The notes below the pieces were generated by a model. That model ran no database searches and was not told where the DNA came from. It was given only the letters and a program-made list of their open reading frames with translations. A stretch of 64,000 nucleotides of DNA, taken from the sequence record MF327008. The stretch is one strand, 5' to 3'. The position numbers and the translations under genes were made by a program. Position 1 is the first letter of the stretch; every line of letters starts with the position of its first letter. Below are positions 1 to 60,774 of this stretch, one piece after another. The stretch is from Shigella phage Sf24.

Positions 1-1664
1 TCTTTGGCGAGCTTAATGGATGCTTTAATGAGTCCATACTGTAATCTCTCAAATAGCTCATGTGTTAAATCGTTAGCATCTTCATAAGAAGCAAAGTTAC
101 TTGCCAGCCAAGCTGCATAGTTAGTAACACCTACACCAAGGTTTCGACGCTTTTTAGCTTTTTCTGCTTCAGGAACTGGATATCCTTGATAATCCAAAAG
201 ATTATCAAGAGCACGAACTTGAACTTCTGCCAATTCATTAATTTTATCTTGGTCTTGCCAGTCAAAATTATCTAGTACGAATGCAGAGAGAGTACACAAT
301 CCAATTTCAGCATCAGGACTATTCACATCATTTGTTGGAATAGCAATTTCACAGCACAAGTTACTCTGACGAATAGGTGCCTTTTCACGAATAAACGGAG
401 TATAGTTATTCGTATTATCAATGAACTGTACATAAATCCTTGCTGTTCCTGAGCGTTCAGTCATGAGCAATTCAAATAGTTCACGGGCTTTAATACGCTT
501 TTTACGAATATTAGGGTCTTTTTCTGCTGCTTCATATAATTCACGGAAACGGTCTTGGTCTTTAAAATAAGAATAATAAAGCTCGCCACCCATTTCATGC
601 GGACTGAACAAAGTAATGTAATCGTTCTTTCCGAATCGTTCCATCATTAGGTCATTCAGTTGAACGCCATAATCCATATGACGGATACGGTTTTCTTCTA
701 CACCTTTGTTATTTTTCAAAACGAGAAGATTTTCAACTTCCAAATGCCAAATAGGATAATAAGCAGTAGCAGCGCCGCCACGAATTCCACCCTGTGAGCA
801 TGATTTAACAGCAGTCTGAAAATGTTTCCAAAAAGGAATAACACCAGTATGACGCACTTCACCTGTGCCAATCTTAGAACCTTCGGCACGAATCATACCA
901 ACGTTAATACCAATTCCAGCGCGTTTGGAGATATATTCAACAATTGAAGCGGAAGCCTTATTGATAGACTTTAATGAATCACCTGCCTCAATAACAACGC
1001 ATGAACTAAACTGTCGAGTCGGAGTACGACAACCAGCCATAATAGGAGTTGGCAATGAAATCTGTCGAGTAGATACTGCTTCATAAAAACGAATAACATG
1101 TTTTAATCTATCAACAGGTTCATCTTGATGCAGTGCCATTCCAATAGTCATAAATGCAAACTGTGGAGTTTCATAAATTTGACCAGTGGTTTTATCTTTA
1201 ACTAGATATTTTTCTTTTAATTGCATCGCCCCGGAATAAGTAAATTCCATATCCCGCTCATGCTTAATTTTTGATTCTAAAAATGTAATTTCTTCTGCTG
1301 AATATTTTGACAATAATTCAGGGTCGTATTTACCTTCATTTACACAGTAAGAAATATGGTCAATAAATGAACGTGGTTCATACTGCCCGTAAACATGCTT
1401 ACGAAGAGCAAACATTAAACAACGTGCAGCTACATATTGGTAATCAGGCTCTTCAACCGAAATAGAATTCGCAGCGGCCTTAATGACAATAGTTTGAATG
1501 TCATCAGTTGTCATTCCATCACGGAGATATGATTTAATATTTTCATATAATTCATAAGGATCTACAGATGTTCCTTCAGCTGCCCAAGATAAAACTTTAA
1601 TAATTTTTTGTGGGTCAAAGCTCTGAGAAACACCACTACTTTTGATAACATTAATTAATTGCAT
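1..1664 (-). CDS. nrdA: Ribonucleotide reductase large subunit NrdA, N-terminal ~554 codons; 3' end lies beyond window start
   Basis: Minus-strand frame opens with ATG at 1664 ([16 protein letters not shown]...) and stays open to position 1; class Ia RNR alpha-like sequence; absent from ORF track because truncated. Confidence 0.85.
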   Translation of the reverse strand, partial: MQLINVIKSSGVSQSFDPQKIIKVLSWAAEGTSVDPYELYENIKSYLRDGMTTDDIQTIVIKAAANSISVEEPDYQYVAARCLMFALRKHVYGQYEPRSFIDHISYCVNEGKYDPELLSKYSAEEITFLESKIKHERDMEFTYSGAMQLKEKYLVKDKTTGQIYETPQFAFMTIGMALHQDEPVDRLKHVIRFYEAVSTRQISLPTPIMAGCRTPTRQFSSCVVIEAGDSLKSINKASASIVEYISKRAGIGINVGMIRAEGSKIGTGEVRHTGVIPFWKHFQTAVKSCSQGGIRGGAATAYYPIWHLEVENLLVLKNNKGVEENRIRHMDYGVQLNDLMMERFGKNDYITLFSPHEMGGELYYSYFKDQDRFRELYEAAEKDPNIRKKRIKARELFELLMTERSGTARIYVQFIDNTNNYTPFIREKAPIRQSNLCCEIAIPTNDVNSPDAEIGLCTLSAFVLDNFDWQDQDKINELAEVQVRALDNLLDYQGYPVPEAEKAKKRRNLGVGVTNYAAWLASNFASYEDANDLTHELFERLQYGLIKASIKLAK

Positions 1665-1981
1665 AAGTCCTCAACTTGAAAATCGTCTTTAAACAATCGG
1701 TTAACTATATGAGCTATTATATCACCATGACACGGCTTTGGTTTACATGTGCATCCTAGCCTCATTCCACGTAAAGGCTCTAAATGTGCTTTAGTTATTT
1801 CTCCGGATTTAATTCGACGTATAAAATCTTTTTTGAATAATTCAATGGCAGCCTCCCGGCTGCCAGCATCTTTACCGACGTAATTTCCCCAAAATGTACC
1901 GCGGTGAATATTAACATCAAAGTCGGATTTGTATTTATTCACTACCCGGCATAGACGGCCCACGCTGGAATAATTCGTCAT
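1655..1981 (-). CDS. Hypothetical protein, 108 aa, Cys/His motif [12 protein letters not shown] (DUF4326-like)
   Basis: ORF track; overlaps nrdA start by 10 nt; position corresponds to T4 nrdA.x small ORFs. Confidence 0.55.
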
Positions 1982-2198
1982 ATTGTTTTTCCGTTAATAC
2001 AGTAATATCATAGTAACAATCGGAAGAAGTTTTAACTGTGGAAATTTTATTATCAAAATACTCACGAGTCATTTTATGAGTATAGTATTTTTTACCATAA
2101 ATGGTAATAGGCTGTTCTGGTCCTGGAACTTCTAACTCGCTTGGGTTAGGAAGTGTAAAAAGAACAACGCCAGAAGTATCTTTAAATCGTAAAATCAT
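1935..2198 (-). CDS. Hypothetical protein, 87 aa
   Basis: ORF track; tightly packed between td and the 108-aa ORF, stop/start overlaps. Confidence 0.45.
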
Positions 2199-3467: not shown

Positions 3468-4294
<827 letters not shown>

Positions 4295-5682: not shown

Positions 5683-5715
5683 ATTATTTTCCTCTTTAAT
5701 CATCAGCAGTATTGC

Positions 5716-5779
5716 CGATAGTTGTATAGTACCACGGAAGAACAAGGATGTAAACCGTTTTGTGAAAAAAATTTTTGAA
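5716..5779 (-). promoter_or_regulatory. T4-type early promoter with A/T UP element
   Basis: Minus strand AAAAATTTTTTCACAAAACGGTTTACATCCTTGTTCTTCCGTGGTACTATACAACTATC: -35 TTTACA, 17-bp spacer, -10 TACTAT; member of repeated promoter family. Confidence 0.6.
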
Positions 5780-5806
5780 ATAAAAAGGGGACCTCTAGGG
5801 TCCCCA
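5780..5806 (-). terminator. Rho-independent terminator downstream of gene 32
   Basis: GC hairpin GGGGACC-CTAG-GGTCCCC (5787-5805) followed on the minus strand by TTTTTATTT. Confidence 0.7.
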
Positions 5807-5827
5807 ATTAATTAGTAATATAATCTA

Positions 5828-23514: not shown

Positions 23515-23537
23515 TTTCTAATCTCCGTAATTCTGTA

Positions 23538-23600
23538 TCAGTAGTTGATAGTTGTATAGTACCACAGTATGCTTTGGTTGTAAACCGTTTTGTGAAAAAA
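23538..23600 (-). promoter_or_regulatory. T4-type early promoter upstream of motA
   Basis: Minus strand TTTACA - 17 bp - TACTAT with conserved GTGGTACTATACAACTATCAACTAC block and A/T UP element. Confidence 0.6.
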
Positions 23601-23609
23601 TTTTTGAAA

Positions 23610-23637
23610 TAAAAAAGGGAGAGCCGAGGCTCTCCCT
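23610..23637 (-). terminator. Rho-independent terminator downstream of gene 52 region
   Basis: Hairpin GGGAGAGCC-GAGGCTCTCCC (23617-23636) followed on the minus strand by TTTTTTATTT. Confidence 0.65.
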
Positions 23638-23787
23638 AAAATTACTGCTCAAACGCGATAACTATCGTGATAACACGTTGAATTCCGAACGCAAGAAGAC
23701 CTCCTGCTACGGCTGGAACAACACCTAAACCAGCCAGTAAAATGCTACCGGATACTAATGCAGCGCTTGTAATACCTATGAATGGAC

Positions 23788-26832: not shown

Positions 26833-26844
26833 TTTCTGTTCCTC

Positions 26845-26905
26845 CGTAGTTGATAGGGTAATAATACCACAGAGGAACAGTCTTGTAAACAACTTTTTTA
26901 AAAAT
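26845..26905 (-). promoter_or_regulatory. T4-type early promoter
   Basis: Minus strand TTTACA - 17 bp - TATTAT, conserved flanks. Confidence 0.5.
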
Positions 26906-27075
26906 ATTCGTAATAAATGTGAATACCAACTACTACTGCTGAAACTTGCGCAACCCACCACGCACAAGCAATAAGCACAGAATTCAAAATTTTCATAATA
27001 ACCTCATCACAAAAGTAAATGTTAAACAAATTAATGGAATACTAATTAACCAAACGAAACACCACCATAATGAAC

Positions 27076-27339: not shown

Positions 27340-27349
27340 TTTTACTCCT

Positions 27350-27415
27350 CCGTAGCTGATAGTTGTATAGTACCACGGTCCTTGTGGTATGTAAACCGTT
27401 TTGTGAAAATTTTTA
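27350..27415 (-). promoter_or_regulatory. T4-type early promoter
   Basis: Minus strand TTTACA - 17 bp - TACTAT with conserved GTGGTACTATACAACTATCAGCTAC block. Confidence 0.6.
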
Positions 27416-27970
27416 AATGGAAAGATACCATCCGTTGTAGTTGCTTTTTCTTACAACCTTACGAAGGTCTTCTCTATCACCGATGAACTTCGGAGTGTAC
27501 TGGATGACACCTGGGTGAATTTCTTTAGTGTTGAATATAATTATACAGTCAGCGACCTGATGATTCAGAATGGGCCCTAGATTTATTCCAGAACCATATG
27601 GATACTCTCCGCTGCATCCTGTTGTTACAGAAATCCAACGTGAGTCAGTTTGATGTGTCTTAACTTCTACACGAAGCCCGCAGTATCTTGGATGCGCCAA
27701 TACATCCCATGCGTATGTATACGGGTCATTAACATCCTCTTGGCCTTTGTTAACATATCCGCTTAGCCAATCTGCTACAAAAAACTCTGCGTACACCGCG
27801 ATACGACATCTTTCAATAACTTCTGCTTTATCCTGATTTGGATTTTGTTTTAAAGAGTATCTTGCTGTATCAGCAATTTTGACCTTCATTTCACTAGTCA
27901 AGTCATTGTTCGATAGGGTAAATGTCGGAATCTGAAATAGTCTCTGTAAACCCGGATTCGTTTTCTGCAT
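27413..27970 (-). CDS. denB: Endonuclease IV DenB, 185 aa
   Basis: ORF track; size and position next to rIIB as in T4; exact start uncertain (68-nt overlap with upstream ORF). Confidence 0.7.
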   Translation of the reverse strand: MQKTNPGLQRLFQIPTFTLSNNDLTSEMKVKIADTARYSLKQNPNQDKAEVIERCRIAVYAEFFVADWLSGYVNKGQEDVNDPYTYAWDVLAHPRYCGLRVEVKTHQTDSRWISVTTGCSGEYPYGSGINLGPILNHQVADCIIIFNTKEIHPGVIQYTPKFIGDREDLRKVVRKSNYNGWYLSI

Positions 27971-28232
27971 TTAGACTTTCCTTTTTACCGCTGAGATAAG
28001 CGTTATATACTTTAAGAGTGCCGTAATAAATTCGGTCATTTTCATCTAAAGACTCACGGTCAAGTTCATCGAGTTCCTTTTTATCCATGACTATAACATC
28101 ATTGCAGTAAAGAAACCCAAGTTTTTCGTGACCAAACTCAAATTTATTGCAATACACAATATTAGCGTGATGATTACCGTGCAGTTTAATCTCTTTTATG
28201 TCGGAATCACCGATATTCATACAATAAATCAT
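27903..28232 (-). CDS. Hypothetical protein, 109 aa; intact copy whose 5' end lies in the duplicated unit
   Basis: ORF track; first 48 codons are repeated verbatim in the 28207..28497 ORF. Confidence 0.45.
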   Translation of the reverse strand: MIYCMNIGDSDIKEIKLHGNHHANIVYCNKFEFGHEKLGFLYCNDVIVMDKKELDELDRESLDENDRIYYGTLKVYNAYLSGKKESLNAENESGFTETISDSDIYPIEQ

Positions 28233-28619
28233 AATTTTTCCTTAAAACAAAAGGGCCGAAGCCCCTTATTTTTATTTGAATTGTGCAATTCTTTTTTCTA
28301 AACAATCTGCGTAAGATTTCATTGAGATGAACTGTGAAAGCAGTAATTCTTGCTACTATAACATCATTGCAGTAAAGAAACCCAAGTTTTTCGTGACCAA
28401 ACTCAAATTTATTGCAATACACAATATTAGCGTGATGATTACCGTGCAGTTTAATCTCTTTTATGTCGGAATCACCGATATTCATACAATAAATCATAAT
28501 TTTTCCTTAAAACAAAAGGGCCGAAGCCCCTTATTTTTATTTGAATTGTGCAATTCTTTTTTCTAAACAATCTGCGTAAGATTTCATTGAGATGAACTGT
28601 GAAAGCAGTAATTCTTGCT
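28090..28619. repeat. Perfect tandem direct duplication, 2 x 265 bp (28090-28354 and 28355-28619)
   Basis: Base-for-base identical on reading the sequence; produces two ORFs with identical 48-aa N-termini. Confidence 0.85.
28207..28497 (-). pseudogene. Chimeric ORF created by the tandem duplication
   Basis: Starts at the duplicated start codon (28497 = 28232 + 265), crosses the repeat junction and terminates out of frame. Confidence 0.4.
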
Positions 28620-28731
28620 CAACTTCATTAATCGTTAGAAACTTTGTGCTTTCTAAAAATTTGCTCAGTGCATTAATTTTGAGCATTAATTGATCGTATT
28701 CTTCTTTTACTCGTGCTTGATAACCTAACAT
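28537..28731 (-). CDS. Hypothetical protein, 64 aa
   Basis: ORF track; 3' end lies in repeat copy 2. Confidence 0.4.
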   Translation of the reverse strand: MLGYQARVKEEYDQLMLKINALSKFLESTKFLTINEVEQELLLSQFISMKSYADCLEKRIAQFK

Positions 28732-28760
28732 AATTTTCCTTAGTTAAGGGCCGAAGCCCC

Positions 28761-29699
28761 TTATTTAAATTGTTCAGTAACGTCTTCAACTACTTCGTAT
28801 TGGCAAGTACGCATTTTAGCATCGTTGTAATCAATCGGAATTGATACTACATCGCGAGGATGTACTTTAACTTTTACAACTCGGCTGGTTGAACTACCAA
28901 AGTGACGAATATAAGATTTAGAACACACATGCAGACCACGAGAACAAGTTTGTGTATCATCGTCATTCACACGAGTACGTGGCATTTTAACTACTTTACC
29001 AGGACTGTTATCAAAAGTATTTGAATGACAGTCAAAGTAATTACTACGAACTACTTTCCAAGCATAGAAGTAGCCATCTTCTGTAATTTCAATATCGTTT
29101 GCTACCAAGAAATCAAAGAGTCGAGATACCGCTTTTTGGCTCGGGTTTTCCAGCAGATTTTCCAAGAACGGAAAATAAAATTCAAAGTTTTCACCTTTTT
29201 CCATCGAATCGAGAATACGATCAACTAAACCAGACCGCAATTCAATATTTTGATAGAACAAGCTTCCACCTTCAATTCGAACATCACCGGAAATATATTT
29301 TTCAACAGCGCGACGAACGTTAATTTTTTGTGCTGCTTCTTCCAATTTATCTGCAACAAGCAGATTAAGAATTTCCTGGAAGTTTGAATGAGTATTAGGA
29401 GTTGCGTTATAAGTTACACCGTCAACAGTAATTGAAATGAATTTTTTAGATGCATTCCAAATAATGTCAGATTTAGCAACTGGAGCAATAACTGCATCGC
29501 TATTAACTTTAACTGTAATATCACCGCTAATAGTAACTTTAGGGCGTTTAGCTTCTTCAGCATTTTTCAAAACACGACGGATTGTGTCAACCGATACATC
29601 CTTCCAATAAGCCAATTCCTGTTGGGTGTAATTACCGCTTGAATACAGTTTAACAATTTCAGCTTGTTCGTTTTTGGTCAGGCATTTAATATTGTACAT
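28761..29699 (-). CDS. rIIB: rIIB protein, 312 aa
   Basis: ORF track; MYNIKCLTKNEQAEIVKLYSSGNYTQQELA... as recalled for T4 rIIB. Confidence 0.9.
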   Translation of the reverse strand: MYNIKCLTKNEQAEIVKLYSSGNYTQQELAYWKDVSVDTIRRVLKNAEEAKRPKVTISGDITVKVNSDAVIAPVAKSDIIWNASKKFISITVDGVTYNATPNTHSNFQEILNLLVADKLEEAAQKINVRRAVEKYISGDVRIEGGSLFYQNIELRSGLVDRILDSMEKGENFEFYFPFLENLLENPSQKAVSRLFDFLVANDIEITEDGYFYAWKVVRSNYFDCHSNTFDNSPGKVVKMPRTRVNDDDTQTCSRGLHVCSKSYIRHFGSSTSRVVKVKVHPRDVVSIPIDYNDAKMRTCQYEVVEDVTEQFK

Positions 29700-29710: not shown

Positions 29711-31888
29711 TTAGGCCGCAAGGGCCTTCATAGTTTTAGCGATTTGGGAAACTTCATCATCACTTAAAGAGCTGCGATATCCGATGAAGTCGGAAACAAT
29801 ACGGAATTTCTTGGTAAACTCAGCAACCATTTTATCACTGTTTTTTGAAGCATTATTTGATAATACATCAAAAAGATTAGTTACTGTCCAGATGTCATGA
29901 CCGATGGTATCTTTTCCACCGTTGAAATATACACCCTGTAATGAACTAACCATATTAGCGAGTCGTGTATATTCTTCAGAAACTTCATCTACACTGAAGT
30001 ACTTCATCATAAAATCTAGCTCAGGATACTTGATAATTTTATCAATATATCGTTTAGCTGAACTTGAATAACCTACGTACTTATCATAATCTACATCATC
30101 AAAAGCATCTACATATAAATCACGCAAAGCTTCAAAAATACATTGGCACTGACCGAGTTCTTTTACCTTTTTCTGTAAAAGCGGACGAATAACATAAAAT
30201 TCATTAATGCCAATAAGATTAGCCATACGAATCAAAATATTCATAGATGGATGACAAAGCGATGTAGTACCATCCATAGAGAAAATATCAGAACGATGCA
30301 TATACGCTACATAACCAGTAATTTCATCTGCTTCTGATGTGAGCGTAAATAGTTCCTCTTTTTCCCAGCGTCCGTCTTTAATTTCAAACTTAAATGCTGT
30401 AGCAGCTTTAGGACGAGGAGCTTTACTTTTAACTACCTTTGGAATATAACTTTTAACCAAAGCTTCAATTTCTGACAAATAGTGAATGTTAACTTCATCA
30501 CTTTCAAACATTGCCATAATATCAGGTAGTAAATCAATCTGCGATTCTACTTCCGGATTAATAAACAGAAGACGCTCATTGTGATGAATATTCAAAGTGT
30601 TATTAAATTCACTATCATCTAGCGCATGTGCTAATCCACGGACAATATTAACACGATTTTTAATATTATCAATAACGATATTAATTTTTGTTGTATTAAT
30701 ACCAAACAGACGATAACTTGATGCAACGGCTGAAGTTTCATGACTTTGCTTAATGCGTTTCAGTCGAGGGTCAAGATTTACTTCATACACCACGCCTGCA
30801 TTACATAACTTACTGTCAGGTTCAAACATGCTCTGCATCTTCTTATATGACAGATTTTTAGTCGTGAATTTGACTGAATTACTAATCATATAATCTCGAG
30901 CAGAATAGCCCATTTTCATTAACTCGCGATACGTATGGCGAGGAGATGTAGATTCTTTAAATCGTTTTACATCTTCATTAAATGCTTTCTCACTAAGCTC
31001 TTTAACTCGTTCAATAATATTTTTACGAGTACGATCATCCAATGAAAGAGCTTCACGTGATGGAGCAATATCAAGTGAACCCATTGGAAACTTAATGTAA
31101 TTTACTTCATTGCGAATGCTTAGCCAGTTACGGTCTCTAATAACACCATCGATAGGATAAACAATACCGCCATAGATAGCATATAATCCACCACGATCAG
31201 GCCAGTATCTTTCTGGATTTACACCGTAATAGTCATCAAAATCCGGAAAATAATCAATTTCGCGGTCAAGACCATTAATGATAGCTAAATCTTTGAAAGG
31301 TCGCATGATATAAGAAACTTCATAAGCAAAGTTTCTAAAGTCTTTTTCTTCAACTGGAACTACGATTTCAATACCAGTTTTATCATCTGGACCCATTTCT
31401 TTTACGAATGTAGGTTTAATCTGTGGACCATCACCATCCATGTAAGCTACATAACCACGAATTTCACCTTTATGATACGAAGTAATACTAAATGTATCAG
31501 TATAACTAAACGGAGATTTAGAACCTAAACCAAATCCGCCAATGAAATCGTTAGATTCAGCCTTAGATGAACTGAAGTATGAATTATACAAACCAGGAGA
31601 ATTATCATCACCCTGAATATCAAAATCACTCATACCCGGACCAAAATCTCGGCAAACAAATCGTGGATCTAAACGTCCAGGAACTTGAATGATAAATTTT
31701 TCAGGATTTCCATTGAGAGCATGGGCATCAATCATGTTGGTAATCAATTCACGAACAACTGCGCGAATCTTATTTGTATACAAATCAGATGATAAGATTT
31801 TAAATACTTTAGGAGATGCTGTGATGCTAAATGCTTTTGATTTAGAACCATTACCAAGAATTGTTTCTTTTTCAGTGGTGATAATCAT
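29711..31888 (-). CDS. rIIA: rIIA protein, 725 aa
   Basis: ORF track; length identical to T4 rIIA; adjacent to rIIB. Confidence 0.9.
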
Positions 31889-32160: not shown

Positions 32161-33977
32161 TGGCTCATCCATTCTTTACGAAGATCAGCATTATCTCCCA
32201 TGAGCATTTCAAAAAGCTCTTTCCAATTCTCAGGAAGTTTAACAACATCATATACTGGATTTTGAATCATCTCACGATATTCAGATTTTTCCAAAGAGCC
32301 AAGTCCTTTAATATAACGGATGCTATGTTTAGGTAGAGCATTTTTGGCACTCTCATATTCAGCGACTGTATAAAACCATTCTTGTTTTTTACCGACCTGA
32401 GCGATGATTACAGGAGTTTTGACAAAGCGAATTCGTCCTTGCTCAAACAGTTCTGGCCAATTACTAAAAAATCCAAGAAGAGAAGGATAAATGCTTCCTA
32501 AACCATCATGGTCAGCATCGGTCATAATAGCAATATTATGATAATTCAAGTTTTCAGCTTTTTCACCAAGAACTAATCCAGTGATTGCGCAAATATCAAA
32601 TAGTTCTTTGTTTTTAAGCATATCAGCATATGACATACCCCAACTGTTGAGAACTTTACCGCGCAATGGATAACCACCATGAAGTTCTTTATCACGAACA
32701 TCAATAAGATATCCGATAGCAGAATCACCCTCAGTCAAGAAAAGAGTAGTGTCAGCATCTTTACCACAAAGATTCGCTTTGATATGTTTATGAACCTTAG
32801 CTTTAGAAGCCTTTTTAGCTGCTTTAGTTTCTGCTGCTTTTTCTGCCGCCAATTTACGAGCCAACGCAGCTTCAATAATTGGCATTAAAATTGCTTCATT
32901 ATTTAGAATAGCGCGTGAAATCTTTTTAGCATCAAGCTGAATATGACTACGAATTTCGCCAAATGGAGAAGTCAAACGCTCTTTAGTTTGAGAATCAAAT
33001 CGCATGTTTTTCATATCACGAACAAACATAACGATAGTCAAACATTCTTTGACACGTGCTTTAGTTACATCAATTTTGAACTTACGTTTGATTTGTGGAA
33101 TAAGGTCTTCACAAATATCATCCATAACACAGTCAATGTGATGGCCACCATTCTTAGTGTGAATGTTATTCACATAAGTTAATTGACGAAATCCATCCGG
33201 TGAACGACCAACAGCAATAGAACAATTTTCTTGTTCTTGAACGATAGCATGTTCATCATACTGTCGTGCATATTTCTTAAAATTGCCCTGAACCTTTTTA
33301 CCATTAAAGGTAAATTGAATATCAGGATAAACTACTGCAAGTGTCTGGAGACGATCGAGTGTAATGTCAAGATAAACCTGAGATAGCTCATTAGTTTCAA
33401 ATGACATAAAATCAGGAATGAAAGTAACACGAGTTCCTTTCCATTTTCCAGGAATATCTTCCCATGATTTATTTTCCATGCCGTTTGAACAACGAACTAC
33501 AATATTATTTTGACCATCACCAGTTTCACCAACAAACATCACAGAAAAAATGTTTGTCAAACTAGAACCAACACCGTTCATACCGCCGGTGACGCGTTCT
33601 TTATCATCACCGAAGTTACCACCTGCTTTTGGAATAGTCCATGCAGCAACAGGACCAGGAATTTCTTCACCGGTAGGTGTTTTAACCATCGCTTGTGGAA
33701 TACCACGACCGTTATCTTCAACTGTTACTTGATTATTTTTAATAGTAACATTAATTTTATTTGCGAATTTAAACTTAGTACGAATACCTTCATCTACTGA
33801 GTTATCAATAATTTCATCAATAAGCTTAACAAGACCAGGTACATACTGAACACTTTCCCATTTACCAAACAGAAAGCGCTCATGCATTTCATTAGCTGAA
33901 GAGCCAATGTACATGCCACTACGCTTTTTGATATGTTCAATATCGCTCAGAATTTTAATTTCATTCTTAATCATCAC
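32157..33977 (-). CDS. 39: DNA topoisomerase II large subunit (GyrB-like), single 606-aa ORF
   Basis: ORF track; MIKNEIKILSDIEHIKKRSGMYIGS N-terminus, GHKL ATPase and Toprim regions; C-terminus ends ...DNADLRKEWMSQ. Confidence 0.9.
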   Translation of the reverse strand: MMIKNEIKILSDIEHIKKRSGMYIGSSANEMHERFLFGKWESVQYVPGLVKLIDEIIDNSVDEGIRTKFKFANKINVTIKNNQVTVEDNGRGIPQAMVKTPTGEEIPGPVAAWTIPKAGGNFGDDKERVTGGMNGVGSSLTNIFSVMFVGETGDGQNNIVVRCSNGMENKSWEDIPGKWKGTRVTFIPDFMSFETNELSQVYLDITLDRLQTLAVVYPDIQFTFNGKKVQGNFKKYARQYDEHAIVQEQENCSIAVGRSPDGFRQLTYVNNIHTKNGGHHIDCVMDDICEDLIPQIKRKFKIDVTKARVKECLTIVMFVRDMKNMRFDSQTKERLTSPFGEIRSHIQLDAKKISRAILNNEAILMPIIEAALARKLAAEKAAETKAAKKASKAKVHKHIKANLCGKDADTTLFLTEGDSAIGYLIDVRDKELHGGYPLRGKVLNSWGMSYADMLKNKELFDICAITGLVLGEKAENLNYHNIAIMTDADHDGLGSIYPSLLGFFSNWPELFEQGRIRFVKTPVIIAQVGKKQEWFYTVAEYESAKNALPKHSIRYIKGLGSLEKSEYREMIQNPVYDVVKLPENWKELFEMLMGDNADLRKEWMSQ

Positions 33978-35798: not shown

Positions 35799-35809
35799 GT
35801 TGTTTTCTG

Positions 35810-35880
35810 TATCAGTAGTTGATATTGATATAGTACCATAATCAACTACTGATGTATATAGTTTTATGAAAAAATTTTAA
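35810..35880 (-). promoter_or_regulatory. Early promoter variant with 11-bp inverted repeat
   Basis: Conserved TGGTACTATAT start block and A/T UP element; CAGTAGTTGAT ... ATCAACTACTG palindrome flanks the -10. Confidence 0.45.
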
Positions 35881-54016: not shown

Positions 54017-54865
54017 TTAATCAACTGCTATTGGATGAATAACATTAAACTTATGAAATGCTTCTGATTTTTCTTTACGTGAAACGCACATGCGAAGAAC
54101 CTTTAATGGTTCGTCTTCTTCACCCAACGATTTTCGTTTTTCAATATTAGAAGTTTTCCAACGAGCTTGCTCTGGAAACTCTCTATTGATTTGCTCAAGC
54201 GCTCTATTATGTTTAGAATTACTACGAATTGAACTGCACCCGCCAGGAGCTTGTGCTTTTCCAGATACAACCAGATATTTGAACAAGGCCAAATGCGGAT
54301 AACCTTGATTAATTAAATTGAGAAATGCATACATATCTTCGCACAAATCAATTTTTCCATACCCAATTTGTTCTGTCGTAAGTTTTCCAAGGTCATACCA
54401 TGTATTCGTGAATCCATATGAATTTTCACGATAATTACCCCAAGATGAAGTAATTTTAAAAATTGGTAGGCGAGCATGACCATGATAATACCCGCAATCC
54501 ATGGCATCCTCAACGTATTGAATCAATTCATAGAACTGTTCACGGGTTAATTGATTAATTTTATCTACGCAGCGACGATCATCTTTCTTTCGCATTGAGC
54601 TCATACGAATAGTAGTATCATCGTCAATCATCCAGATTCGTTGACCTGCATACATATCAGTAATTGCTTTACGAGTACCGGCAATTCCGTTTACATCATC
54701 AGGAATAGTTATAATTTTAGCTCTAGACCCATAGGCATCATAATAAGCTTTTTCTTCATGTTCACGCACTACAATATGGGGTTCATAATCAGTCGGAAAC
54801 ATATCAAGGGCAGAAACTGCCCCGACACGCTGATAACTTGGAATTACGAATTGAATCATTTCCAC
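54017..54865 (-). CDS. Putative glycosyltransferase (DxD motif), 282 aa, at the beta-gt locus
   Basis: ORF track; WMIDDDTTI acidic motif typical of GT-A enzymes; not the T4 beta-glucosyltransferase sequence I recall. Confidence 0.5.
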   Translation of the reverse strand: MEMIQFVIPSYQRVGAVSALDMFPTDYEPHIVVREHEEKAYYDAYGSRAKIITIPDDVNGIAGTRKAITDMYAGQRIWMIDDDTTIRMSSMRKKDDRRCVDKINQLTREQFYELIQYVEDAMDCGYYHGHARLPIFKITSSWGNYRENSYGFTNTWYDLGKLTTEQIGYGKIDLCEDMYAFLNLINQGYPHLALFKYLVVSGKAQAPGGCSSIRSNSKHNRALEQINREFPEQARWKTSNIEKRKSLGEEDEPLKVLRMCVSRKEKSEAFHKFNVIHPIAVD

Positions 54866-56399: not shown

Positions 56400-56648
56400 T
56401 CAAATGCAAGTAGTAATTACTCCAGTAGTGCTTATGCAGGTATTACCCATTTGCACACCTAAAGATCCATTTGTATTCACATGAAGATTATCATCAATTT
56501 TAACTGATATTTTACCATTAGTGTGAATAACGGTGCTAGATTCAATCACAGGTTGAGTATCATTTTCAACACTAACAAATGGAACTGCTGCTAATGCAAC
56601 TAAACAAACTGCTAAGCATCCCATAACAATTTTCATTTTATTCTCCAA
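56400..56648 (-). CDS. Small secreted/membrane protein, 82 aa
   Basis: ORF track; N-terminal hydrophobic signal-like segment. Confidence 0.4.
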   Translation of the reverse strand: MENKMKIVMGCLAVCLVALAAVPFVSVENDTQPVIESSTVIHTNGKISVKIDDNLHVNTNGSLGVQMGNTCISTTGVITTCI

Positions 56649-56654
56649 ATCCGT

Positions 56655-56720
56655 ATTAGTTGATAGTTGTATAGTACCATGGAAGAACAGGGATGTAAAC
56701 AGTTTTGTGAAAAATTTTTA
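56655..56720 (-). promoter_or_regulatory. T4-type early promoter
   Basis: Minus strand TTTACA - 17 bp - TACTAT with conserved TGGTACTATACAACTATCAACTAATAC block. Confidence 0.6.
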
Positions 56721-56781
56721 ATGAATTTACAGGACCTAGAATCATCTGTTTTTCATAAGTATAGATTTATATTACTTGTAT

Positions 56782-60210: not shown

Positions 60211-60774
60211 TTACCATTCCAATGCTAGTTTTTTGAGTTGTTTCTGTTCTTTTACGTTCTTAGTCACTTCTTTCAAAAAATCATCCGTGACTAATCCTTT
60301 AAGTTCTTTTAATACTAAAGGTAGTTTTCCATTTTTAGTAAGAATTGATTTATAGTTAATTGCATCATTTGTATTAACTTGATACCGCTTAGCAAGTAAC
60401 TTAATAATCAATACTTCGGTGGAATCTTCGACCAGTTTTGCCCATTTACCATATCTTTTACCCCGAGGAACTGCAGCCATCAGATAATTAAAATGAGCTT
60501 CATCACTTAAGCCTGATCCAATTAAATTCATAGCATATACAGCTGGCATGCACTCTGGAAATTGTGATAATGCATTTTCAACCATGAATTTTGAATAATC
60601 TTTTTGAGCAATAGAGCATTTAGTTTTATTATTAATAGCTCCAATTATTTCAAAAAATTCATTTTCAGCTTTTTCTTTAAAAGAATCAGCAGCAGATTGG
60701 ACAGCTGTCCAATCTTTTGAATACCAAGCAACTTGATGCTCGTTTAATTGAATATCATCTTCAAATAAGCTCAT
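60211..60774 (-). CDS. 62: Clamp loader small subunit gp62, 187 aa
   Basis: ORF track ORF 60211..60795; start taken at MSLFEDD as in T4 gp62. Confidence 0.85.

Follow-up and report, generated by a model that had tools for sequence, protein, structure and literature searches.

Between the rIIB and denB genes of Shigella phage Sf24 (sequence record MF327008), a segment of 265 nucleotides occurs twice in direct succession, and the question arises whether this perfect tandem duplication belongs to the DNA of the phage or to the deposited record. A first reading of the locus, made from its letters and open reading frames (hereafter the sequence-only reading), had left open whether it is a real, very recent rearrangement or an assembly artefact. 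In the present work, the whole stretch of 64,000 nucleotides that contains the repeat (the window) was analysed, together with related Tequatrovirus genomes and with the records of the sister phages Sf21 (MF327007) and Sf25 (MF327009). The phages Sf21, Sf24 and Sf25 were reportedly isolated and sequenced in one study, said to be that of Doore and colleagues from 2018.

Results

Geometry of the repeat and its junction

The repeat search of the window revealed two copies of a 265-nt unit arranged head-to-tail with 100% identity (Table 1). Tandem Repeats Finder described the same interval with a period of 265, 2.0 copies, 100% matches and a score of 1060, and a direct string comparison found copies 1 and 2 to be identical, with the match extending 0 bases past either edge. 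The limits of the two copies and the zero divergence between them, both described in the sequence-only reading, were thus reproduced by independent means over the full 265 nt. The repeat is the sole direct repeat of at least 50 nt with at least 95% identity in the 64-kb window, and a chance origin is therefore excluded. The microhomology at the junction between copy 1 and copy 2 is 0 bp. A search for offset microhomology near the breakpoints gave nothing better than an 8/9 match that is out of register, and this match was treated as chance.

Gene anatomy of the duplicated interval

Every gene of the locus is located on the minus strand, and the placement of the repeat between denB and rIIB, as read earlier, is correct. 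The order of transcription is rIIA, rIIB, a hairpin, the gene of a 64-aa protein, a hairpin with a ribosome binding site (RBS), a 96-aa ORF, a second instance of this hairpin and RBS, the gene of a 109-aa protein and denB. The unit comprises 83 nt at the 3' terminus of the 64-aa gene, a 39-nt spacer with the hairpin and the RBS, and 143 nt of the 5' part of the 109-aa gene, and it contains no complete gene. The gene map agrees in this respect with the earlier description of the unit, which had listed the 109-aa gene with its RBS and 48 initial codons, a CUUCGG hairpin and the 3' terminal part of the 64-aa gene. The 64-aa and 109-aa genes are both left unbroken by the duplication, as is always so when a tandem duplication spans a gene boundary.

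The second copy of the start codon opens the 96-aa ORF, and the translations bear out the claim that this ORF is an out-of-frame chimera standing beside the intact 109-aa gene. Residues 1-48 of the ORF are those of the 109-aa protein, and the other 48 residues are read out of frame because 265 = 3 x 88 + 1. This second half corresponds to the duplicated tail of the 64-aa gene, the hairpin and the RBS, all read in the wrong frame, and the ORF ends 26 nt within the intact 109-aa gene. The match of the ORF to the profile of DUF7418, the family of the 109-aa protein, is limited to residues 1-50.

Both copies of the unit carry a C(UUCG)G hairpin with a predicted energy of -13.3 kcal/mol and a U-tract behind it, and the AAGGA...ATG segments that lie 3' of the two hairpins (28532-28515 and 28267-28250) are alike. 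Several RefSeq relatives annotate this hairpin as a 'terminator', and by its sequence the duplicated element would be both terminator-like and RNA-stabiliser-like. The third hairpin, outside the duplication, is similar to the other two (repeat family, 92%). Recombination between the three CUUCGG hairpins, in the manner of PeSL-like shuffling, was considered as a source of the repeat and rejected, as the hairpins are 230 bp apart with the breakpoints outside them and cannot give a period of 265 bp.

In the vicinity of the repeat, the 185-aa denB ORF and the 3' end of the DUF7418 gene share 68 nt in different frames (27903-27970), and the start of denB is annotated inconsistently (185 aa, versus 158 or 163 aa in DUF7418-carrying genomes). 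The window also contains dispersed elements of ~70-100 nt, 61-78% identical, which were read as T4 early-promoter cassettes. Behind some of them stands a GC-rich stem-loop, an arrangement that resembles the PeSL cassettes of T4-type phages, and one adjoins denB directly downstream.

Table 1. Positions of the features of the Sf24 locus and of the tandem duplications in the sister records
Record	Feature	Position	Strand	Remarks
Sf24	rIIA	29711-31888	minus	
Sf24	rIIB	28761-29699	minus	upstream flank
Sf24	Hairpin 3, CUUCGG	28745..28763	minus	without U-tract; between rIIB and the 64-aa gene; outside the duplication
Sf24	64-aa gene, DenB.1/Y16O homologue	28537..28731	minus	intact; last 83 nt inside copy 2
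Sf24	Copy 2 of the 265-bp unit	28355..28619		100% identical to copy 1
Sf24	Copy 2 hairpin, C(UUCG)G tetraloop	28515..28532	minus	AAGGGGCUUCGGCCCUU then UUUGUUUU then AAGGA-N-ATG
Sf24	96-aa chimeric ORF	28207..28497	minus	ATG at 28497; deposited as Sf24_gp122
Sf24	Novel junction	28354/28355		...GCAGTAATTCTTGCT / ACTATAACATCATTG...; 0 nt microhomology on either side
Sf24	Junction of copy 1 and copy 2, second rendering of the letters			...GAAAGCAGTAATTCTTGCT / ACTATAACATCATTGCAGT...
Sf24	Copy 1 of the 265-bp unit	28090..28354		promoter-distal with respect to the coding (minus) strand; 100% identity with copy 2
Sf24	Copy 1 hairpin	28250..28267	minus	AAGGGGCUUCGGCCCUU then UUUGUUUU; 5' of the intact DUF7418 start
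Sf24	109-aa DUF7418 gene	27903..28232	minus	intact; ATG at 28232; first 143 nt in copy 1
Sf24	denB (endonuclease IV), 185-aa ORF	27413..27970	minus	downstream flank; phrog_1360, E=1.8e-97
Sf24	Dispersed promoter-cassette elements	5701-5814, 23531-23644, 26836-26913, 27342-27419, 35805-35878, 56646-56759	minus	
Sf21	Duplication in gene 53	74544-75118		period 285/286 bp
Sf25	Duplication	3531-4152		period 310
Sf25	Duplication	32923-33326		period 202
Sf25	Duplication	54472-54802		period 165
Sf25	Duplication	60314-60621		period 153
Sf25	Duplication	65651-66151		period 249
Sf25	Duplication	66916-67272		period 178
Sf25	Duplication	94631-95130		period 249
Sf25	Duplication	106811-107230		period 208
Sf25	Duplication	109699-110187		period 244
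Sf25	Duplication	118767-118994		period 114
Sf25	Duplication	122837-123131		period 147
Sf25	Duplication	135874-136227		period 177
Sf25	Duplication	141903-142401		period 249
Sf25	Duplication	143142-143641		period 249
Sf25	Duplication	144337-144835		period 249

The flanking gene products and the chimeric protein

The 64-aa protein matches the Pfam family PF21825 with E=1.9e-19 (69.7 bits against a gathering cut-off of 24.8) and shares 58 of its 64 residues (91%) with T4 DenB.1. PF21825 has lately been given the name Sequestin, for viral sponges that take up the Thoeris signal 3'cADPR, and its T4 member, under the name Y16O, blocked type I Thoeris when knocked into phage SBSphiJ (bioRxiv 10.1101/2025.07.12.664507). 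The Y16O primers printed in the same preprint match the 64-aa gene of the window. The residues reported there as essential in SequestinB (R7, E11, Q45 and R59) are all present in the 64-aa protein, the correspondence to SequestinB being one of position only. The 64-aa gene is thus a predicted Sequestin-family anti-Thoeris sponge for 3'cADPR, an activity that is known from T4 Y16O, while the allele of the window is known from its sequence. The duplication left the sequence of this gene unaltered.

The 109-aa protein belongs to Pfam DUF7418 (phrog_2237), a family without assigned function, of which no mention was found in the literature searched. The presence of its gene is polymorphic in Tequatrovirus, with an intact form in 230 of ~500 records. 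T4 and many relatives retain only the start and the end of the gene, with an internal deletion of ~195 bp, and at least three deletion alleles can be distinguished, in which the matches begin at unit positions 91, 104 and 137/138.

In a search of a protein collection, the chimera had a single full-length partner of 100% identity (all 96 residues), namely 'hypothetical protein Sf24_gp122 [Shigella phage Sf24]', which forms a singleton cluster and comes from a contig of 168,112 bp. As the deposited Sf24 annotation already holds this chimera, the duplication is internal to the GenBank record itself. Sf24_gp122 is also listed in NCBI nr and UniRef as 'DUF7418 domain-containing protein', and it is probably a spurious protein that has been propagated into the databases.

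Distribution of the junction among related genomes

The window belongs to Tequatrovirus, and the record closest to it in the phage collection is that of Shigella phage Sf25 (97-98%). A probe of 200 nt centred on the junction matched 342 records, and among the matches listed it was always split into two pieces that map to opposite ends of one unit of ~264 bp. The 5' region of the DUF7418 gene was found in 230 records at exactly 230 places, one copy in each. All 32 related loci that were retrieved, whether through an exact-protein look-up or out of the phage collection, hold one copy as well, and the closest haplotype among them is 98.5% identical. The comparison with related T-even genomes, which the sequence-only reading had proposed as a check, gives a single copy in these records and loci. 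The exact 109-aa protein occurs in 394 blocks of a contig collection and was in single copy at all 10 places listed. Neither the exact junction 38-mer nor a SNP-tolerant 24-mer had a match in IMG/VR, JGI metagenomes or GTDB genomes, a search of low power, in which the parental boundary itself, taken as a positive control, was present in just 2 IMG/VR contigs. The 265-bp duplication is private to Sf24.

When the two parts of the unit were taken separately, none of 493 phage records had two matches to the 5' part of DUF7418. One of the 493 had two substantial matches (E <= 1e-30) to the part with the sequestin tail and the hairpin.

The description of this interval as a hotspot of deletion and duplication is supported in part, by the natural DUF7418 deletion alleles between denB.1 and denB, and no other duplication was found there in the 230 records.

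Tandem duplications in the sister records

The record of Sf25, which comes from the same laboratory, study and species as Sf24, was scanned by self-BLAST as a whole stitched record of 168,573 bp. It contains 15 perfect tandem duplications with periods of 114-310 bp, which together amount to ~3.1 kb. In five of the 15 the period is exactly 249 bp, and this recurrence points to a technical length, for example read length minus one, rather than to biology. The homology at the 15 junctions is 0-3 nt, which corresponds to chance level. The duplications alter the products of several genes: rIIA is enlarged to 808 aa, compared with 725 aa in the Sf24 window; DNA polymerase is enlarged to 948 aa, compared with 898 aa in the Sf24 window and in Sf21; NrdA, NrdC.4, NrdC.5 and NrdC.6 are also lengthened; and 'partial plus full-length' pairs are created, among them those of gp5.1 and ModA.2. 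Every Sf25 duplication is private to Sf25. All seven units that map into the Sf24 window are in single copy there, and 14 of the 15 are in single copy in Sf21. The 15 duplications of Sf25 are almost certainly contig-join artefacts.

Sf21 has exactly one tandem duplication (Table 1), with ~100% identity between its copies. It is situated inside gene 53, an essential baseplate gene whose annotation is split into gp144 and gp145, and no intact frame of gene 53 remains in the record. This duplication is an artefact of the same kind as those of Sf25.

The first base of the Sf25 record is precisely the last one of the gene 2 CDS (1..825), and that of the Sf21 record is precisely the last one of rIIA (1..2178). 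Since both start exactly at a gene boundary, both records were deliberately re-oriented. The numbering of genes in Sf24 (gp122, compared with gp124/125 in Sf25) and the coordinate offset between the records are, once the upstream duplications of Sf25 have been removed, consistent with the origin used for Sf25. It was observed post hoc that the Sf24 duplication is 1.1-1.6 kb from the rIIA/rIIB junction, the origin used by Sf21, and that the Sf21 duplication is 1.5-2.0 kb from the end of the gene 2 CDS, the origin of Sf25 and probably of Sf24. These crossed distances may be a trace of the cutting and re-joining of the assemblies at a change of origin.

Records from other sources

No direct repeat of at least 60 nt was found in 33 Tequatrovirus loci (348 kb) from other laboratories and metagenomes. 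The complete genome of LF73P3 has no tandem duplication, and that of HEMP5 has no internal one. In HEMP5 (OR424388, flagged circular), positions 1-127 are identical to positions 166251-166377. This identity of the ends is an untrimmed overlap of the SPAdes type with k=127. It shows the artefact in its raw state, which a rotation of the record would turn into a perfect tandem duplication inside the sequence. Artificial overlaps of this sort have been described previously, as has the habit of re-orienting phage genomes that are circularly permuted (Philipson et al., 2018, PMC5923482).

Discussion

Origin of the duplication

The presented results strongly indicate that the 265-bp duplication is an untrimmed overlap at a contig join, that is, a feature of the deposited record and very probably not of the phage DNA, a conclusion which is drawn for Sf24 from its sister records. 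It follows from the presence of the same signature 15 times in Sf25 and once in Sf21, in some cases within essential genes, from the re-orientation of both these records, from the lack of a 2-10 bp homology at the Sf24 junction and from the finding of this junction in no other genome. Of the two origins between which the sequence-only reading had not decided, the assembly artefact is thus strongly favoured by the sister records, the 0-bp junction and the privacy of the repeat, and the real rearrangement is disfavoured. The genomes of T4-like phages are circularly permuted, so that an assembler gives a linear contig with overlapping ends. The assembly of Sf24 may have been re-oriented to a chosen gene boundary, by which the former contig ends would have been joined, and an overlap of 265 bp, either at the circularisation join or between two overlapping contigs, would have been left untrimmed and concatenated instead of merged. 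Such a join would leave two identical head-to-tail copies with no junction homology at an arbitrary position. In Sf24 it would have fallen by accident across the boundary between the Sequestin and DUF7418 genes and duplicated an RBS and an ATG, which gene callers would have taken as the start of the spurious 96-aa Sf24_gp122. We infer that Sf24 was handled like its sister records, that the repeat marks a join and that no read supports the junction. Some observations speak against an artefact. The length of 265 bp does not correspond to a standard de Bruijn k-mer overlap, for example one of 127, and in the visible 64 kb of Sf24 there is one duplication only, with core genes that are intact and a sequence that is otherwise clean. 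Moreover, the duplication disrupts no gene and would be viable, and tandem duplications do arise in T-even phages within rII and in its vicinity.

The principal alternative is a real, very recent tandem duplication, which would have arisen between the genes of Sequestin (denB.1) and DUF7418 through illegitimate recombination or replication slippage and been fixed by the bottleneck of plaque purification, and which would have put a second hairpin or terminator and a translated chimera of 96 aa upstream of the intact DUF7418 gene. This origin is unlikely. The natural indel polymorphism of the denB.1-denB interval agrees with it, as do the viability of an arrangement in which both flanking genes are intact, the well-assembled appearance of the remaining window and the ability of T4 to form tandem duplications and amplifications, the rII region included, as described in the T4 literature. 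However, a perfect tandem homology of 265 bp should be segregated out quickly in an active recombiner like the T4-type phages, and the unit, being devoid of a complete gene, offers no dosage benefit. A real event would also have to be private to one record out of 230, and an identical signature is seen 15 times in Sf25 and once in Sf21, with essential genes affected and a period of 249 bp recurring. Finally, the junction homology is 0 bp, compared with the 2-10 bp typical of T4 events; for sequenced junctions of T4 duplications and amplifications, homologies of 2-10 bp (or 6-10 bp) are given by Srikant et al. (2022), with reference to Kumagai (1993) and Wu (1991). A just-born duplication without junction homology, for example a topoisomerase-mediated or end-joining-like event directly downstream of the Sequestin gene, is likewise improbable. 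If it were real, the CUUCGG terminator or stabiliser hairpin would be doubled, and the N-terminal half of DUF7418 with a novel out-of-frame tail would be translated as a 96-aa protein. The locus would then capture the de novo birth of an ORF, together with a rewiring of regulation, in an anti-defence neighbourhood of a phage, and would be a modest example of homology-independent duplication that creates a new ORF beside an anti-defence gene.

It is very unlikely that the duplication is real in a sub-population of the lysate and that the assembler wrote this minority form into the consensus. Duplications arise continually in T4 populations, and the sequence as such is compatible with a minority variant. 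Nevertheless, the objections to a real duplication apply equally to a minority one, a minority junction is rarely picked by an assembler, and the pattern in the sister records would be left unexplained. The formation of the repeat during the excision of the 64-kb window, as through wrap-around of a circular record with overlapping ends such as the 127 bp left untrimmed in HEMP5 of the same genus, has next to no probability and is refuted by the deposited Sf24 annotation, which already holds the chimera gp122, identical over 96 residues.

Consequences for the records

The repeat is most likely not a real feature of the phage and carries little biological weight, and its significance is one of curation. 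Sf24 serves as exemplar for the species Tequatrovirus sf24, and curation flags are due for Sf24_gp122 and for the Sf25 and Sf21 records. The Sf25 record needs correction, as rIIA, DNA polymerase, NrdA, NrdC.4-6, gp5.1 and ModA.2 are lengthened or split in it. Comparative, pangenome and protein-family work that uses these records inherits false indels, false paralogues and false domain architectures.

Comparison with known systems

The microhomology-mediated tandem duplications and segmental amplifications known from T4, namely those of rII (Kumagai et al., 1993), Hp17 (Wu et al., 1991) and dmd-tifA (Srikant et al., 2022), are head-to-tail like the repeat of Sf24. The Sf24 repeat also shares with them its occurrence in a T-even phage, its position adjoining rII and its location in non-essential accessory DNA. 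It differs from them in the lack of microhomology, in the lack of a complete gene and in the number of copies, of which there are two only, and it is accompanied by neither a compensating deletion nor a selective rationale.

The duplications of Sf25 and Sf21 resemble that of Sf24 in their size class, in a junction homology of 0-3 nt, in their privacy and in the spurious split or extended genes to which they give rise. Several of them are situated inside single genes, some of these essential, whereas that of Sf24 spans a gene boundary and breaks nothing, and for this reason it cannot be shown to be impossible from its letters by themselves. In comparison with the untrimmed overlaps at contig ends and joins (Philipson et al., 2018, PMC5923482), the 265 bp of Sf24 do not match a k-mer size, and the repeat lies inside the record rather than at its ends, a position that would require either rotation or the concatenation of contigs. 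The Sf24 repeat and these overlaps are nevertheless alike in the identity of the copies, in the absence of junction homology, in their arbitrary position and in their restriction to a single record.
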